A DNA stretch of 63,495 nucleotides, the filler included, from an uncultured Thermoplasmatales archaeon (GTDB lineage Archaea > Thermoplasmatota > E2 > DHVEG-1), in assembly GCA_964517155.1 (NCBI GenBank). It is 5 parts of 5 records of this genome, joined end to end, with 100 filler letters (N's around TTAATTAATTAA, not from the genome) between each part and the next. Parts side by side here need not be neighbours in the genome. Positions count along the whole stretch, not along the records: positions 56,966 to 60,543 come from CAZFAZ010000084.1; 4 more parts are not named here. One strand, given 5' to 3'. This document shows positions 55,353 through 63,495 of this stretch, in pieces. The stretch's first letter is position 1. Each line of letters begins with the position of its first letter. Under the pieces are notes generated by a model that was not told where the DNA came from, searched no databases, and saw only the letters and a program-made list of their open reading frames with translations. Position numbers and translations under genes: made by a program.

Positions 55353-56865
55353 TCACATATAAAATAGTTTTAAAATAAGAGAAATTACTTTAGAAGTTCT
55401 TTCTTGTTTATTTTTTGAAATTAAATTAGTGGATTTAAGTTTCTTTAAAATTAAACAACGTTTCTTGTAAACATATAAAACAAGTATTAATGAAAAGATT
55501 ATACTAAAGAAAACAAACCACCATTCAATACTTAGATAGTATACTGTTTGAGAAGAGTCATACTTGTTGATCTCTTTTGATTCTGTAACATGACCCGGGG
55601 TAATACATGAAACAGTCGTTTCATCAGAATCTAATTCATCAAAAAATTCAACATAATCATCATTTTGTATGTCCTGGAAATTTTCTTCGACGGTTTCATC
55701 AACATCATCGTAGACTATACTATCATCAATTTCTTCTTCATTAACTTGAACAGTATTTACAATATGATGTATTTTTTTATAATTATTATTTACAACTGTA
55801 TTTGTTTCTTCAAATGTAACTTTTACATACGTTACATTATAAGATGATAAACCTTTATTGTCTATAACTGTAAGATTAACAATGAATTGTCCATCTTCAC
55901 TGTATACATGTTCAGATTTTATGCCATAACCTATGTTTGTGTCACCAAAATCCCATGTATAATTTACAATGTTTCCATCAGGATCATAACTTTTTGAGCC
56001 GTTGAATTTTATAACTTTATTGACATATCCTACGTAATGACTGCCGGCATCAGCAACAGGCGAGTAATTCTCGATGGTATCTGTATTTATGATTACAATC
56101 GGGTTTTCTCCAACGTTTTGTTTTGCAGTATATCTTTTTCCTTTATAGATAACTCTAAAATTATAAGTCCTTGAAAGTAACTCATTTTTTGTTTCACCAT
56201 CTTCATTGGTAATACCAAAAAACCTCCAACTACCACTATAGTAAGAAACATTACCACCAAGAAGACAATTACCAATACTATCCTGTAAAACAACAGTAAC
56301 CTTAAGAGTAGAGAAGACAACATCGGAATCAAGACTAACATCCTGCTTCAAAGAAACACTGGAACCATCATAAAAAACCCTAAAAGTGTAGCTTTTCGGT
56401 AAAAGTTCACCTTTTACCTCACCATTTAAATCAGTTACACCAAAAAATTTCCAACTGCCACTATAAAACTCAACAGTACCATTTTGCAAAGGAATATAAC
56501 TGCTATTAAACAGATTAGCAGTTACTCTAACTGTATTAAATATAATAACAGTATTGATACTAACATCTTGCTTCAAAGAAACACTAGAACCATCATATGT
56601 TAACTTAAATGTATAACTCTTAGATAACAACTCTTTCGTAACCTCACCCGTATTATTAGTAAAACCAATGAACCTCCAGCCACTAGAATAAAAACTAACA
56701 TTACCCTCACTAATGCCAAAACCAGAACTATTCTCAAACCTAACCGTAACCTCAACAGTAGAAAATATAACAACAGGGTCAATACTAACATCCTGCTTCA
56801 AAGAAACACTGGAACCAAGATAACTCATCCTAAAAGAATAAGTCCTTGGAAGTAACTCATTTTTT
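55353..56865 (-). CDS. Membrane-anchored surface protein with 75-aa tandem repeats and PKD domain (5' partial)
   Basis: GSSVSLKQDVS repeats with 225-nt period (56350, 56575, 56800); FNGSKSYDPDG...WDFGD; frame open up to the gap. Confidence 0.85.
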
Positions 56866-56965: not shown

Positions 56966-57093
56966 TATTTATAGAAAATTAATTTCTACTCCTATTTGTG
57001 TAATGCTTAGCTCATTTTAAAGAAAAAAAACAAATTGTTATCTTTTGTTTTTGTTTTGTTTCAAAACCTAAAAATCAACTCAAACACCTACTG

Positions 57094-57470
57094 CGTGCAA
57101 AACCTGTTTGTCAGCAGTTACCCTTCACGTGCAAAAGATGACTGTTAGACCACCAAGAATACTACTTTGCCTAACAGAAGAAAAAACAATCCATCAACCA
57201 ATCAACTTTCCAAGCATCAACTCAACCAAGATAAAAACAATTTCACCTCCCAAGCAAACACTGCAAACGATGTCAGTTCCCCCATTATTTTTTGCAAAGA
57301 ATGTCATCTGAATTACATGCAAACGTTGTCAGGTCACACTATCGGATTTTCTAAAAACTACTCATCATTTTAAACGAAATATTTTGCAATAAACATTTAC
57401 ATCCGCCACATGAACAAACACTGCAAACGCTGTCAATTTGACCCCACGGCGATCATTGCTAAACTTTTCA
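57094..57470 (+). repeat. Field of co-oriented TGCAAA-N-TGTCA direct repeats
   Basis: N3 spacer at 57262, 57293, 57318, 57422 (variant 57457); N7 spacer at 57096 and 57130; 57255-78 vs 57415-38 identical at 22/24. Confidence 0.8.
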
Positions 57471-57593
57471 GATCATGCTGTAATCAACAGCCACTTTTTG
57501 TATTCGTACAGTATTGGTTTGAACTACACACAAAAAATATTATACATAATTTATTATAATGCATTTATAATACATTTTCTAAAGGGTTGAACA

Positions 57594-58508
57594 ATGATGA
57601 ACTGTCCACAATGCAATATAAATAAACACATCATTAAATCTGGAATCCGCCAAACCCAAGAAGGCATCATACAAAAATATTACTGCAAACACTGTAAAAA
57701 ATATTTTACCAACAAAACTCAGGCGTATACTCATTATCCATTACATGTAATCCTATATACATTGCAACAATACAACAAAGGATACCCTGTTAAAAAAACA
57801 AAAACTCTTACTGGAAAAAAATACCGATATTCACCGCCAGAAAGAACTATTTACTCATGGATTACACGATATCAACACACACTGACCTTTCTCAAACTAC
57901 GTAAACAATATATGATAGATCCAGAAAATCTTACCACAACACATCGTTTCAACCATCAACAAATTTATCCTTTCACCTACCATAACCTTAAACTCAATCT
58001 TTATAGTAAGCAATTTCCACAACTAAAACGCTATATAAACTGGGTAGAACGAAGCCTTCCCACAACTATATTTCTTAGTGGTCCACGTGCCTCACAATGT
58101 ACTGCTTGCAAAAAAATTAAAACAAAACAAAAAAAATCTATTGCACCAGAACTTACCAGACTTGCCCTACATCTTCAAGCTAAAAACCAGTCTGTTCATG
58201 AAGCTGTTGAACAATTCTTTCTTTACAACGATTCAACAACTATTTGTACAGAACTACCCGTGTTTTTAAATCCAAAGGAAACAGATAAATTTAACATTGA
58301 AACACCCCTCACAGGACATATTGATATTATTCAAATACGAAACAAAAAAGTATACATAATGGACTATAAACCAAACTTAAACCATCCAGAATGTTACAGT
58401 GGTCAACTCATGGCATATAAACAAGCGCTACATCATCGAACACAAATTTCAGAAGATACTATCATTTCAGCTGTATTTAACCAACATAATTATTATGAAT
58501 TTGAATAA
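57594..58508 (+). CDS. InsA-like Zn ribbon plus HTH fused to a PD-(D/E)XK (RecB/Cas4-like) nuclease
   Basis: CPQC...IKSG.R...QKYYCKHC; RTIYSWI; TELPV...GHID...DYK...QL.AY. Confidence 0.8.
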   Translation: MMNCPQCNINKHIIKSGIRQTQEGIIQKYYCKHCKKYFTNKTQAYTHYPLHVILYTLQQYNKGYPVKKTKTLTGKKYRYSPPERTIYSWITRYQHTLTFLKLRKQYMIDPENLTTTHRFNHQQIYPFTYHNLKLNLYSKQFPQLKRYINWVERSLPTTIFLSGPRASQCTACKKIKTKQKKSIAPELTRLALHLQAKNQSVHEAVEQFFLYNDSTTICTELPVFLNPKETDKFNIETPLTGHIDIIQIRNKKVYIMDYKPNLNHPECYSGQLMAYKQALHHRTQISEDTIISAVFNQHNYYEFE

Positions 58509-58851
58509 AAAATTAAAAGTTAAAAAAACAAACCGCGTTGTGTAAAAAAATTGCGATATCTTGCATTTTTGCTATTGTGTACACAGATCGTTTTGCTTTT
58601 TTCATCTCTGAGATAATCAATAGAATCTTTCTTTAATTTAATTTTTTCATGTAATCAAATTGGATTGCAGTATTTATTCAAATGAATTAATTTAAGGATA
58701 CTGCAATTGTTTTTCTGAACCATTAAGATTCTATTGTTAAATTTCTGTTGAGCATTTACATAGCAAAAAATATAAATATGCATAAACAATATATTGTATA
58801 TTAATAAATTATTGTATAATTACATAATTATGTCAAAAGGTGAAAAAAACA

Positions 58852-59007
58852 ATGTCTACATTAACTGTATCTATTCCAAAAAAATTAAAAGATAAAATGG
58901 ATGAACATCCTGAAATAAATTGGTCTGAGGTAATTAAAAATAGACTTAGAATAAGAGCAGAAGCAATCCTTGAATTTGAAGAAAAAAGAAAAAATGAGGG
59001 GAATTGA
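58852..59007 (+). CDS. RHH antitoxin-like protein 1 (51 aa, absent from the ORF track)
   Basis: MSTLTVSIPKKLKDKMDEHPEINWSEVIK; GGTGA SD. Confidence 0.85.
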   Translation: MSTLTVSIPKKLKDKMDEHPEINWSEVIKNRLRIRAEAILEFEEKRKNEGN

Positions 59008-59250
59008 ATGGTAAGTATTACATTAAAAGTCACAGAAGATTTTAAAAAAATGATAAAACAACTTTCCTGGGTTAACTGGTCAGAAATCGCTAGAGAAGAA
59101 GCTTTAAAAAAATTAGAAGAAGAAAAAGCATTAGAAAAATTTAGAAAAATCATTTCAAAATCAAATTTTTCAGAAAAAGACGCAGACGAACTAGCCAAAA
59201 AAGTTAAAAATTCTATGTATAAAGATCTTAAATATAAAGAGCTGAGATAG
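59008..59250 (+). CDS. vapB: RHH antitoxin (VapB-like) 2
   Basis: MVSITLKV...VNWSEIARE; directly precedes the PIN toxin. Confidence 0.8.
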   Translation: MVSITLKVTEDFKKMIKQLSWVNWSEIAREEALKKLEEEKALEKFRKIISKSNFSEKDADELAKKVKNSMYKDLKYKELR

Positions 59251-59251
59251 A

Positions 59252-59653
59252 TTGGAATTAGTAATTGACTCAAATGTTTTATTTAGAACGCTAATATCGG
59301 GGGGAGACATAATAGATCTTGTATTTGACAAGAATTTAACGCTGTATGCTCCAAAAATGCTTTGGATTGAATTTTTAAATAATAAAAAAGAAATTCTTTC
59401 TAAATCTAAACTTTCAAATTCAGATTTTTCAATTTTAACTAAGTTACTTTTTAAAAGAATTAAATTAGTAGAAAGAGAAAAATATCAAGAACATCTTACA
59501 AAAGCTAAAAAATTATTAGAGAGTCATGAAAAAGATGCAGATTTTATAGCACTTTGCCTTTATAAAAACTGTAAACTTTGGACATATGAGTCGAGATTAT
59601 TTGAGATGGGTTTTGGGATTTCGACAAAAGAAATATCAAAAAAAGGAAAGTGA
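59252..59653 (+). CDS. vapC: PIN domain ribonuclease toxin (VapC-like)
   Basis: VIDSNVL, central E, KDADFIAL and LWTYE. Confidence 0.88.
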   Translation: MELVIDSNVLFRTLISGGDIIDLVFDKNLTLYAPKMLWIEFLNNKKEILSKSKLSNSDFSILTKLLFKRIKLVEREKYQEHLTKAKKLLESHEKDADFIALCLYKNCKLWTYESRLFEMGFGISTKEISKKGK

Positions 59654-59877
59654 ATTATTTTTATTTTTTATATTTCTCATTTTAAGGGTTTTCGTATGCA
59701 AATCTGTTATTAATAATTCTAACTAAATAAGAATTTATGGTATTTGTTTAGCTGCTTAAGGGTATCAGGAGAAGAAAAAAACCTGCCAAAGCTCTATCGA
59801 CAGAACCTTAATAGCGGAAAAACGACTTTAATAATAACTTGATACGTTCTACATCAAAACTTGGCTTCTGCTGTTAA

Positions 59878-60360
59878 ATGGGGATTAAAGATGAAAAAAT
59901 GAAAAATAAAGAATTCGTTCTTTATATAGATATACTAGTAAACTGTTATCTCCCAAACCTATACGACATACATCCAAATTGTTTTTTTGAAGTTCCTCTT
60001 ATCAAACAGGTCTATAGCAGTATGAACTATCAAGTGAAAATATCGTCGGTATCGGATAATTTATTTATACCTGTACGGGAAATAATAACTGCTATGAAAA
60101 TTCAGTCTCTATCTTCAAGAGGAGACGTTTTTCATAAAAAAGTCAAAGACTTTTGCGACCTTTACAGTTTGCTTTGGTTTTCTAAAAAGTCTGTACGTGA
60201 AAATATTGATGATGTATTAAATTTTATAGGCGTAAACTCAATAAAGCGATTGAAATATGGTATTAACAAGGATATTATCTCAGCATGTGACGGATACCTT
60301 GAAGAGCCTAAAGGCTCTTTGAACACGGTTTTTAATGATTTGTATAAATATTTAACATAA
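59878..60360 (+). pseudogene. Probable N-terminally truncated AbiEii-like nucleotidyltransferase
   Basis: AMK.....R....KK.KD..DL motif present; GG/DxD N-terminal motifs absent; in-frame TAA just before the ATG. Confidence 0.55.
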
Positions 60361-60543
60361 CGCAAACTATTTTCACGCGAAAAACCTGTCAGCCTCCTAT
60401 TAACTCTCATATATTACGTAAAAATACGTTGCGTATAAATACATAATAAATCAATAAGAAAATAATTAGATTGAATTAAAAATATCTGTATCAAATTATA
60501 CCAAATTATTATAAATTTGATAAGACAACTGACAATATATTAC

Positions 60544-61966: not shown

Positions 61967-62176
61967 ATGTTAAATAAAAAAATTATTGACTCTTTTTTAA
62001 ATAAATCTGTATCCGTAGGCGTACCGCATATAATATTACCAGATCGTTTGTTTTTTTATTATGGCAGATTACACGAAGTAACAGGCAGCAGTATAACACT
62101 TGAAACAAAGCAGGGTTTTAAAATTGTACCAATCGAGCAAATAAAAGATTTACATGAAGATGAGAGGTCGCATTAA
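61967..62176 (+). CDS. Small protein, Sm/LSm-like beta pattern
   Basis: FLNKSVSV...YYGRLHEV...SITLETKQG..IVPIEQIK; GGAGG SD. Confidence 0.6.
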   Translation: MLNKKIIDSFLNKSVSVGVPHIILPDRLFFYYGRLHEVTGSSITLETKQGFKIVPIEQIKDLHEDERSH

Positions 62177-63495
62177 TGATGAAAGGCGTACCCGAGAAAG
62201 AACGGCAGAAGTTAATGCAGCAATACAGCGTATACGAAGAAAAATTCGATAACAGAGGAAACCCGATAGCGACAACTCTTAACTTACCAAATCTTGGAGA
62301 ACTAATATTTAACGAGCTAAATCTACATTTCTTAACAACATATGATAACAAAGAGATATTTGTTTATGAAAACGGTTATTATATATCAAGAGGAGAACCA
62401 ATAATACAAGAATGTGTAGAATTATTCCTAGGAGATGACAGCAAAGAACATTATAAAAAAGAAACTGTTGGATATATCCGAGATAAAAACTACAGGGAAA
62501 GAACCCTTTTTGACAGTGAGAAATACCTTATCAATCTAGAAAACGGAGTCTATGATGTAAAACATAATAAATTCTTAGAACACGATCCTAAATATTACTT
62601 TCTCTCACAGTTACCAATAACGTATGATAAAAAAGCCAAGATAAAAAAAATAAAAAACTTTCTAAAACAAGTATTAAAACCCGATGATATAACACGGCTA
62701 CAGGAGATATTCGGATATTGTTTTTACAGGGATTATTACATACAAAAAGCCTTCATGTTTTTAGGTGAAGGCGCAAACGGAAAATCCACAGTTTTGAATC
62801 TATTAAAAAAAATGCTTGGCAACCAAAACGTGAGCAGCCTTTCATTACAAGAGCTATGTGAAAACCGTTTCGCACCAGCAAACCTATATACAAAACTGGC
62901 GAACCTATATCCCGATCTACCTGATAAAACATTGACTAGAACAGGCTTGTTCAAGATACTAACAGGCTCCGATACCATATCAGCAGAGCAGAAATTCAGA
63001 GACCATTTTAACTTTGTAAACTATGCAAAACTAATATTCTCTGCAAATAAGCTTCCTGAGTCGAAAGATGATACCAACGCTTATTTCAGACGTTGGGAGT
63101 TTATGACGTTCCCATATTCCTTTTATGGGAAAAACTGCGATACTAAGATATTTGATAAAATATCAACTGAAACAGAAATGTCAGGGCTTTTTAACTGGAG
63201 TCTTACAGGTCTTAGACGACTTTTGAAAAATGGATGCTTTACAAATTCTGCGAATGTCGACGAAATGCGGGAAAAATATCAGCGGCTAAGCTCACCAATA
63301 GCAGCTTTTGTGATGGATTGTATTGAAATTCAGCCTGAATGTTACGTCAAAAAAGACGATTTATATGCATGTTTTGTGCAATATTGTGTCGAAAAAGGGC
63401 TACCTGCAGTCGCAAAAAACACATTTTCAATGAAACTACATGAGCATGTAAAAGTGAATGATTATAGGCCAACTGTATCTGGAAAACGTGTTCAA
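62176..63495 (+). CDS. D5-like/P4-family SF3 helicase replication protein (3' partial, absent from the ORF track)
   Basis: INLENGVYD (D5_N), Walker A GEGANGKST, FKILTG.D, IFSANKLP, YFRRW; TAATG coupling to the previous ORF. Confidence 0.92.
   Translation, partial: MMKGVPEKERQKLMQQYSVYEEKFDNRGNPIATTLNLPNLGELIFNELNLHFLTTYDNKEIFVYENGYYISRGEPIIQECVELFLGDDSKEHYKKETVGYIRDKNYRERTLFDSEKYLINLENGVYDVKHNKFLEHDPKYYFLSQLPITYDKKAKIKKIKNFLKQVLKPDDITRLQEIFGYCFYRDYYIQKAFMFLGEGANGKSTVLNLLKKMLGNQNVSSLSLQELCENRFAPANLYTKLANLYPDLPDKTLTRTGLFKILTGSDTISAEQKFRDHFNFVNYAKLIFSANKLPESKDDTNAYFRRWEFMTFPYSFYGKNCDTKIFDKISTETEMSGLFNWSLTGLRRLLKNGCFTNSANVDEMREKYQRLSSPIAAFVMDCIEIQPECYVKKDDLYACFVQYCVEKGLPAVAKNTFSMKLHEHVKVNDYRPTVSGKRVQ

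Follow-up and report, generated by a model that had tools for sequence, protein, structure and literature searches.

The window, i.e. the whole 63,495-nucleotide stretch of DNA that was analysed, consists of several contigs joined by spacers and belongs to a host genome of 1,585,476 bases (90.8% complete). A repeat field and a nuclease gene (57594–58508, + strand, 304 aa) lie on a 3,578-base contig of their own (56966–60543); the genome's close homologs are labelled Thermoplasmatota/Thermoplasmata. Linkage is confined to this contig, which further holds a block of three genes, the last of them for a PIN toxin, and an ORF of 160 aa. Linkage of the repeat field to the PKD gene upstream or the D5 primase downstream is ruled out, as both stand on separate contigs. 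The former (55353–56828) encodes a PKD-domain surface protein with 225-nt (75-aa) tandem repeats and is ended by the contig edge. The latter (62176–63495), a D5-like primase/helicase with two small genes upstream on a 2,852-base contig, probably belongs to a mobile element unlinked to the repeat field. Contigs of run X1, which is possibly the source sample, cover the field in overlapping pieces with 0–2 differences.

The preliminary description had placed the field in C/A-skewed non-coding DNA, and a GC skew of −0.375 over 57001–58000 (C/A-rich + strand) bears this out. The four exact, co-oriented TGCAAA-N3-TGTCA sites that it reported were recovered at 57262, 57293, 57318 and 57422, all on the + strand and within 175 nt; the whole genome assembly holds five, four of them in the field. 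With one mismatch allowed, six sites were counted window-wide against a shuffle mean of 2.78, and six or more were reached in 5 of 100 shuffles. As this excess is marginal, the signal resides in the clustering of the exact copies. The exact 14-mer, a half-site, turned out to be too narrow a motif: among 109 other homolog loci, often with little sequence available upstream, it was found upstream of 1. Likewise, two sites described with an N6 spacer, 34 nt apart, are real but were parsed wrongly: they are two complete 30-bp palindromes in tandem and have no longer spacer. The preliminary description had also missed that the field is one copy of a dispersed, multi-copy element located between cassettes.

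Palindromes and half-sites

Comparison of homolog loci defined the full site as a 30-bp palindrome of four boxes, 5-N4-12-N4-5, in which a 12-bp core is flanked on either side by a 4-bp spacer and a 5-bp outer box; TGCAAA-N3-TGTCA is its right half. One copy of a conserved non-coding element of ~270 nt spans 57064–57338 and contains two tandem palindromes and three half-sites, oriented along the + strand, which is C/A-rich and the sense strand of the nuclease gene. Palindrome A (57081–57110, +) was identified from the sequence and has the outer boxes CAAAC and GTTTG, and palindrome B (57115–57144, +) follows at a tandem spacing of 34 nt. The latter scores 20.4 with a matrix trained without its contig, and the reversed-genome control gave 0 matches. 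The half-sites at 57262–57276 (the best copy of the preliminary description), 57293–57307 and 57318–57332, all +, form a triplet spaced 31 and 25 nt, the third being the usual right edge of the element. Next to it lies a 104-nt block (57333–57436) that ends in half-site 4 (57422–57436). In a near-identical strain, represented by one contig of run X3, exactly these 104 bases from half-site 3 to half-site 4 are missing, so that gain or loss of a unit is seen directly. A degenerate half-site (57457–57471, +), located 35 nt past half-site 4, was recognized by alignment and is intact at the equivalent place in locus L008. Closest to the gene, the sequence reveals a degenerate palindrome (57488–57517, +) at about −106 to −77 relative to the start codon, a candidate autoregulatory operator. 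Intact palindromes start 78–94 nt upstream of the start codon in five other loci (L018, L010, L019, L049 and L050). A solitary degenerate palindrome, co-oriented with the others, is found on the far side of the cassette block (60363–60392, +).

Across loci, the most frequent spacings are 25 nt (44 cases), 31 nt (39) and 34 nt (28). Box positions are mostly conserved in 16–20 of 20 element copies and the three spacer bases of the half-site drift, as expected for protein contacts. A full-site matrix was built from 32 sites, leaving out the contig of the field and a second contig, C6. Within this genome it matched these two contigs only, with 0 matches in the reversed genome, and both carry a close-type nuclease gene or a fragment of one (in C6, a truncated paralog of 85% identity). 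Scatter over the genome in the manner of a host transcription-factor site, named in the preliminary description as a possible refutation, is thus not observed. The same matrix found no full site beside three 35%-identical paralogs in this genome. A host transcription-factor site was also rejected on wider searches, in which a strict full-site pattern gave 0 matches in 41 relatives and a wider one was present in 26 of 197 genomes, mostly of one family. By itself, the half-site matrix lacks specificity across the genome (about 40 matches vs. 29 in the control). A palindrome scan scored spacers of 3–5 alike, N4 not being uniquely favoured; at N4, palindromes were detected upstream in 10 of 75 loci and downstream in none. 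The fields went undetected in a generic screen for 11-mer repeats, which proved too blunt.

A conserved non-coding element

The stretch 57064–57338 aligns at 67–80% identity with stretches in many related genomes. Twenty aligned copies share one order, i.e. two palindromes 34 nt apart, two A-rich modules and three half-sites spaced 31 and 25 nt; element and spacings are direct observations. Element model R1 matches the present copy (C84:110-373) with E 2.5e-53, that copy having been part of the model. It has two matches in this genome, on the two contigs with a close-type nuclease gene or fragment. The second element (genome G000, contig C6:1396-1681) is of a TTCATATATGAA-core subtype and lies about 1.2 kb after the truncated 85% paralog and a fragment of a sugar dehydratase. 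One genome thus contains both core subtypes side by side.

The ends of the element are ragged and extended by further half-sites, as judged from 50 near-full copies that include a few duplicates. Among these 50, with few close strains for comparison, neither terminal repeats nor target duplications nor empty sites were detected, so that the earlier suggestion of an element end is not borne out in the IS sense; for plasmid iterons, no support was found either. A repeat-bearing ncRNA partner, also proposed, fared no better. The consensus fold of the 20 copies is weak (−8.1 kcal/mol, covariation term −0.1), mean folding z-scores range from −0.4 to −1.0 on both strands with no advantage for either, and the single Rfam match (Histone3, E 0.083) is below threshold. 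Departures of palindrome B from symmetry favour G-T pairs on the minus strand (19 vs. 7). Using a sigma-70 model as the sole promoter model, 10 promoter-like sites were found compared to 10.0 in shuffles. Viral contigs gave no pattern match and one weak protein fragment.

The nuclease

The 304-aa protein comprises an IS1/IS6-type zinc ribbon (4 Cys), an HTH domain (about residues 46–109) and a Cas4/AddB/RecB-like PD-(D/E)XK domain (about 161–304). Its earlier reading as an InsA-like CxxC..CxxC ribbon and HTH joined to a RecB/Cas4-like nuclease is borne out: PF12705 is detected at E 1.2e-5, the N-terminus resembles the IS1-transposase profile NF033558 at E 5e-4, a value far below the cut-off, and no DDE domain was found in profile and structure comparisons. 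In one homolog, NF050000 scores above its cut-off. None of the residues E220, D244, D257, K259, Q271 and Y275 varies among the aligned homologs (25 of 25). The only conserved cysteines are the four of the N-terminal ribbon, and TIGR00372 is far below its cut-off.

In the predicted structure (pLDDT 91), residues 46–109 resemble transposase-type and CRISPR-repeat-binding HTH domains with Z 5–6.5, including Tc3, Mu and Mos1 at Z 5.0–5.5. Residues 161–304 resemble Cas4/AddAB/RecB nucleases, with a best Z of 7.7 (rmsd 4.2 over 111 residues) and none reaching 8. The nearest folds, i.e. AddAB, Cas4 and DinG-linked enzymes (all Z <8), are mostly single-strand or end-processing enzymes and not site-specific cutters. 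A Foldseek search returned nothing with E ≤0.001. With 221 clusters at E ≤1e-30, the family is large, and it is under purifying selection, with dN/dS of 0.09–0.23 in 8 of 8 pairs. Still, broken gene copies are common despite the intact catalytic site in others.

A weak search gave no longer fused forms at E up to 0.001. In one family member of 769 aa (P0185), the nuclease (72–368) is followed by a reverse transcriptase of group II intron type (400–741), a single sequence in which the fusion could be chance read-through. Another of 561 aa (P0164) carries a weak 23S rRNA-intervening-sequence domain (four-helix bundle, E 2e-4), and two long distant members (P0173, P0203) contain repeated low-complexity in-frame insertions, possibly DNA repeats inside the gene. 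The N-terminal module is shared with widespread SWIM/zinc-ribbon/HTH/IS6-like DDE proteins of ~370–400 aa (L103, L113, L244), as labelled from sequence reading.

Gene and element have an unusual strand skew in common. The third-position GC skew is −0.45 in 12 close-clade nuclease genes compared to +0.04 in this genome's 798 ORFs. A value of −0.5 is reached by 6 of these ORFs, and cassette genes have a skew close to zero. The element is C/A-rich in the same sense as the nuclease gene. Two close-clade genes have a positive skew (L095, L169), both without a site within 1.5 kb. On one reading, the minus strand of element and gene would be repeatedly left single-stranded, via resection or strand displacement from a bound site; codon choice may instead be the cause of the skew in the gene.

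Co-occurrence of nuclease and element

Nucleases of at least 55% identity are referred to as the close clade, and 108 family genomes were searched. The close-clade nuclease is present in 18 and the element model matches 26 of them. Elements were found in 16 of 18 genomes with the close clade vs. 10 of 90 without it (Fisher p 1e-10, kin not being independent). By genus, the counts are 7 of 8 vs. 3 of 32 (p 5e-5, a test likewise inflated by kin). In each of three genera (g1, g5 and g41) exactly one genome has both gene and element, and its genus-mates have neither. The number of elements is at most 15 in any of the 108 genomes, with 18 candidates scored per genome in fragmented assemblies. They often recur with no trace of a nuclease gene alongside, and five genomes (G054, G066, G067, G074 and G100) hold 1–15 elements and no intact close-clade gene by the family profile, in assemblies that are 79–95% complete; G074 has a broken piece of such a gene. 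Conversely, G016 and G092 have a close-clade gene and no match to the element model.

The close clade forms one branch (29 of 70 rows, SH-aLRT 100) in a quick tree that has SH-aLRT as its sole support measure and came with long-branch warnings. Each subclade has its own outer box on a common half-site frame. Sites were counted in 600 nt upstream, dropping loci with <200 nt; the five patterns were read from the same loci in which they were later counted, and clade is confounded with host lineage. In the window-like subclade A1, the outer box is GKCAG (7 of 10 loci, 17 sites), in A2 GGTTG (5 of 17 loci, 18 sites) and in A3 TTTGG (2 of 2 loci, 7 sites). Sister clade C has a GAGAG-like box (4 of 10 loci, 8 sites) and the most distant group GTGAG (8 of 17 loci, 8 sites). 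Downstream, 0–1 sites per group were found, shuffle means are 0.5 or less, and there is little cross-talk between subclades. The 31+25 triplet recurs with different letters in A2 (L014, L020, L058) and A3 (L024, L028). In distant clade B, all five patterns are missing (0 of 9 loci).

The match between subclade and outer box is a direct observation, and such parallelism with the nuclease tree would be unexpected of a host factor. Different upstream repeats of the same geometry in other subclades are the strongest evidence for the link to the nuclease and good, albeit indirect, evidence for cognate binding sites. Together with the co-occurrence in genomes, they lend indirect support to the earlier suggestion that the repeats may be the cognate sites of an uncharacterised nuclease system.

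Several loci show further features. A second A2 field brackets a MNT-HEPN cassette in L014/L020. L098 of clade B has an upstream repeat field of about six copies with a period of ~23 nt, and L049 has five upstream repeat copies; both motifs are their own and outside the five patterns. The most distant group is taken to be Patescibacteria, judging from neighbour genes; its loci adjoin fibre genes and carry upstream half-sites. In six loci of this group (L062, L064, L068, L073, L080 and L086) the nuclease is accompanied by a second PF12705 nuclease and a conserved gene of ~142 aa, and these genes adjoin large surface proteins.

Cassettes between the elements

The block downstream of the nuclease gene (58840–59653, +) consists of two small genes and a PIN toxin (PIN_2, E 2.9e-23). 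The proximity to toxin–antitoxin genes noted in the preliminary description is thus confirmed for the toxin; the two small genes have no significant Pfam match, and we take them to be antitoxin-like from their look. Blocks of 86–90% identity adjoin elements in G018 and G054 in a different order; the toxin block, which follows the nuclease in this genome, precedes it in G018. More generally, elements occupy the gaps between MNT-HEPN, PIN, AbiE, ParE, Fic, AAA-DUF4143 and ATPase-DUF234 genes, and often adjoin glycan-synthesis genes. The nuclease is the commonest neighbour (10 genomes vs. 8), a count biased by the many loci picked for holding it. On a 10.5-kb contig of glycan-related genes (G052 contig C153, loci L192 and L219), two elements in direct orientation lie at the two ends; bracketing may therefore extend to larger blocks.

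Wherever two elements share a locus (matches >25 bits), they point the same way (62 of 62 pairs), and the nuclease gene is co-oriented with elements in 10 of 12 cases. Cassette genes are evenly divided, 38 facing the same and 38 the opposite way. The single orientation of the elements, their position between cassettes and the sharing of cassettes are observed directly: 48 blocks are common to different genomes at ≥85% identity, and blocks of 0.9–1.8 kb are 94–99% identical across genera, some of them starting and ending within elements (L008/L189, L172/L189, L187/L243). Still, homology breakpoints are not enriched in elements. Of 81 breakpoints (70 non-coding), 25 fall in elements compared to about 23 expected, given that elements make up 17.7% of non-coding bases and that either partner may touch one by chance at the 70 non-coding breakpoints. 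Breakpoints scatter along the element with no fixed position, and no site-specific crossover was found. Such scatter fits homologous rather than site-specific recombination without proving it.

In the 3 kb around elements there are 290 proteins, with no recurrent integrase among them; representatives of 63 clusters and 48 further neighbours were scanned. As contigs are short, a more distant intI is possible. The scanned neighbours include no cas genes, and those of the close clade no intron or intein; an intein domain adjoins one distant locus (L085). Past the nuclease stop codon, nothing is conserved beyond about 20–40 nt.

Comparison with known systems

In integrons, cassette genes mostly have one orientation and there is one fixed crossover point, whereas cassette genes here face both ways (38/38) and no single crossover point exists. 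The similarities to integrons and CALINs, including archaeal ones, as far as the available text describes them (10.1101/2022.02.06.479319), are the co-oriented repeated sites between accessory cassettes rich in toxin–antitoxin and defence genes, and cassettes common to different lineages. Unlike integrons, the elements have no IntI tyrosine recombinase nearby (absent by definition in CALINs too), and in place of a folded attC-type hairpin there is a ~270-nt half-site array with no conserved fold in 20 copies. RAYT/REP/REPIN systems, in the portion of the source at hand (PMC5581495), are alike in that one enzyme gene is flanked by ~30-bp palindromes also found elsewhere, and that the link between enzyme and repeat rests on association. 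Here, the palindromes are mainly on the upstream side of the gene, and the enzyme is a PD-(D/E)XK nuclease with zinc ribbon and HTH rather than a HUH (Y1) tyrosine transposase. The 1–15 co-oriented copies are confined to islands and not strongly over-represented genome-wide, they lack a hairpin signal, and the system is patchy, with pseudogenes and cross-genus transfer. The PeSLs of T4-type phages, according to the text available (PMC2839356), recur as intergenic modules in variable regions, where recombination from copy to copy has been proposed as a means of gene shuffling. The present element is similar in these respects, but PeSLs consist of a promoter and a terminator stem-loop and in that text have no dedicated enzyme (PMC2839356), whereas a clade-matched nuclease is linked to the present element. 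Genes beside it face either way.

The CxxC..CxxC ribbon and HTH are shared with IS1/IS6/IS1595-type transposases (NF033558, NF050000). In IS1/IS6-type transposases this module binds the element ends; here the DDE domain is replaced by a Cas4-like nuclease, and terminal repeats and target duplications are lacking. CRISPR-associated Cas4 has an Fe-S cysteine cluster and a cas1/CRISPR context, unlike the present family with no Fe-S cysteines, helicase or CRISPR link. Homing endonucleases cut alleles without their gene. The RecB/Cas4-type active site is common to solo Cas4-like PF12705 nucleases (PMC5704561, main text), and these and homing endonucleases (PMC3384342, PMC3943268), as far as the texts at hand go, are alike in being selfish-looking, patchy and often broken; here, by contrast, sites are kept and multiplied beside the gene. 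The words "zinc" and "transposase" have 0 occurrences in the main text of the Cas4 survey (PMC5704561). In the literature found, no description of this nuclease family or element was encountered; one may be contained in supplements, such as those of the Cas4 survey, or in subscription papers.

By analogy, the layout resembles an integron or PeSL array, and the pairing of enzyme and palindrome resembles RAYT/REP. The system differs from integrons, RAYT/REP, IS/MITE and CRISPR-Cas4 in features that define each of them; its mechanism is a proposal.

Proposed mechanism and alternatives

The zinc-ribbon/HTH module very probably binds the half-sites, and the nuclease is likely to do so on double-stranded DNA through this transposase-type module. 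It is predicted to nick or cut at or near the sites. The breaks would be repaired by host homologous recombination between directly repeated elements, which may excise, duplicate, reorder or import the DNA in between. The nuclease gene would itself be one such cassette, and recombination could also spread it. The outcome would be an integron-like array with a nuclease in the place of the integrase, and the copy nearest the start codon would probably double as operator. On balance, we slightly favour that the nuclease both binds and cuts at elements and that recombination by the host between direct copies gains, loses and moves cassettes. The findings that weigh against this mechanism are the breakpoints without enrichment in elements, the element-rich assemblies without the gene, the two genomes with the gene and no match to the element model, the nearest folds, which are mostly not those of site-specific cutters, and clade B, where the patterns are missing.

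Its main rival is autoregulation with elements as relics. Here, binding of the nuclease to the sites would serve solely to control its own gene; dispersed elements would be leaders left over from its repeated arrival and decay in an insertion hotspot, and cassettes would gather otherwise. Intact palindromes that often start 78–94 nt before the start codon, the common broken gene copies, the unenriched breakpoints and the persistence of elements in assemblies without the gene would all agree with it. What makes this explanation unlikely, albeit one to be taken seriously, is that up to 15 elements occur per genome, often with no trace of the gene alongside, that boxes are kept while spacers drift, and that elements are strictly co-oriented and move with unrelated cassettes between genera. 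It is improbable that the element is a non-autonomous, MITE- or REPIN-like mobile repeat copied by the nuclease into new intergenic sites, with cassettes as bystanders. Multiple copies, a conserved length and the tie to one enzyme clade do recall RAYTs and REPINs as treated in the text at hand (PMC5581495), but the 50 near-full copies have ragged ends and show no empty site, target duplication or terminal repeat. Moreover, copies are confined to accessory islands, number two in this genome and are co-oriented in all 62 pairs.

Element-rich assemblies without the nuclease gene could alternatively imply that the sites belong to another factor, i.e. a host regulator or an unlinked recombinase or transposase, with the nuclease as a frequent passenger. 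The ~370–400-aa SWIM/zinc-ribbon/HTH/IS6-like proteins of these archaea, which have a related DNA-binding module, would be candidates. IS6-like genes, however, are also present in genomes without elements, and no half-sites were seen in the flanks examined. Given further that the element has a patchy distribution within genera that follows the nuclease, that no integrase recurs within 3 kb of elements and that the outer box changes with the nuclease subclade, we assign this possibility a slim chance. Slimmer still is the prospect that transcription of the element yields an RNA with the repeats, by which the nuclease would be guided or regulated. The conserved length and module order and the minus-strand G-T pairs of palindrome B are in its favour; the consensus fold and z-scores reported above are weak, most sites are direct repeats unable to pair, and a variable guide-like segment of fixed length is absent.

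Conclusions

In summary, the half-sites and full palindromes that make up the repeats are parts of a conserved DNA element, which accompanies a nuclease family. This nuclease–repeat system is real and has no description in the literature found; its role in cassette shuffling is a prediction. In the widest form of the proposal, a widespread family of transposase-derived DNA-binding modules joined to Cas4-like nucleases, each clade with a co-evolving multi-site element, would constitute an integrase-free cassette platform. It would cut co-oriented elements and leave it to host recombination to build, reorder and transfer defence and surface-glycan arrays in uncultured archaea; hosts much farther removed would have site variants to match. 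We hold this form to be a serious possibility, to which we give a little less than an even chance.

For the accumulation and turnover of toxin–antitoxin and defence genes in islands without an integrase, the present analysis names a candidate enzyme and a candidate site, and the link is directly testable with a protein of 304 aa, sites of 15–30 bp and five natural protein–site pairs. If the proposal is true, cassette arrays could arise by a route other than integrons, and long, naturally varied recognition sites would characterise a small family of nucleases.
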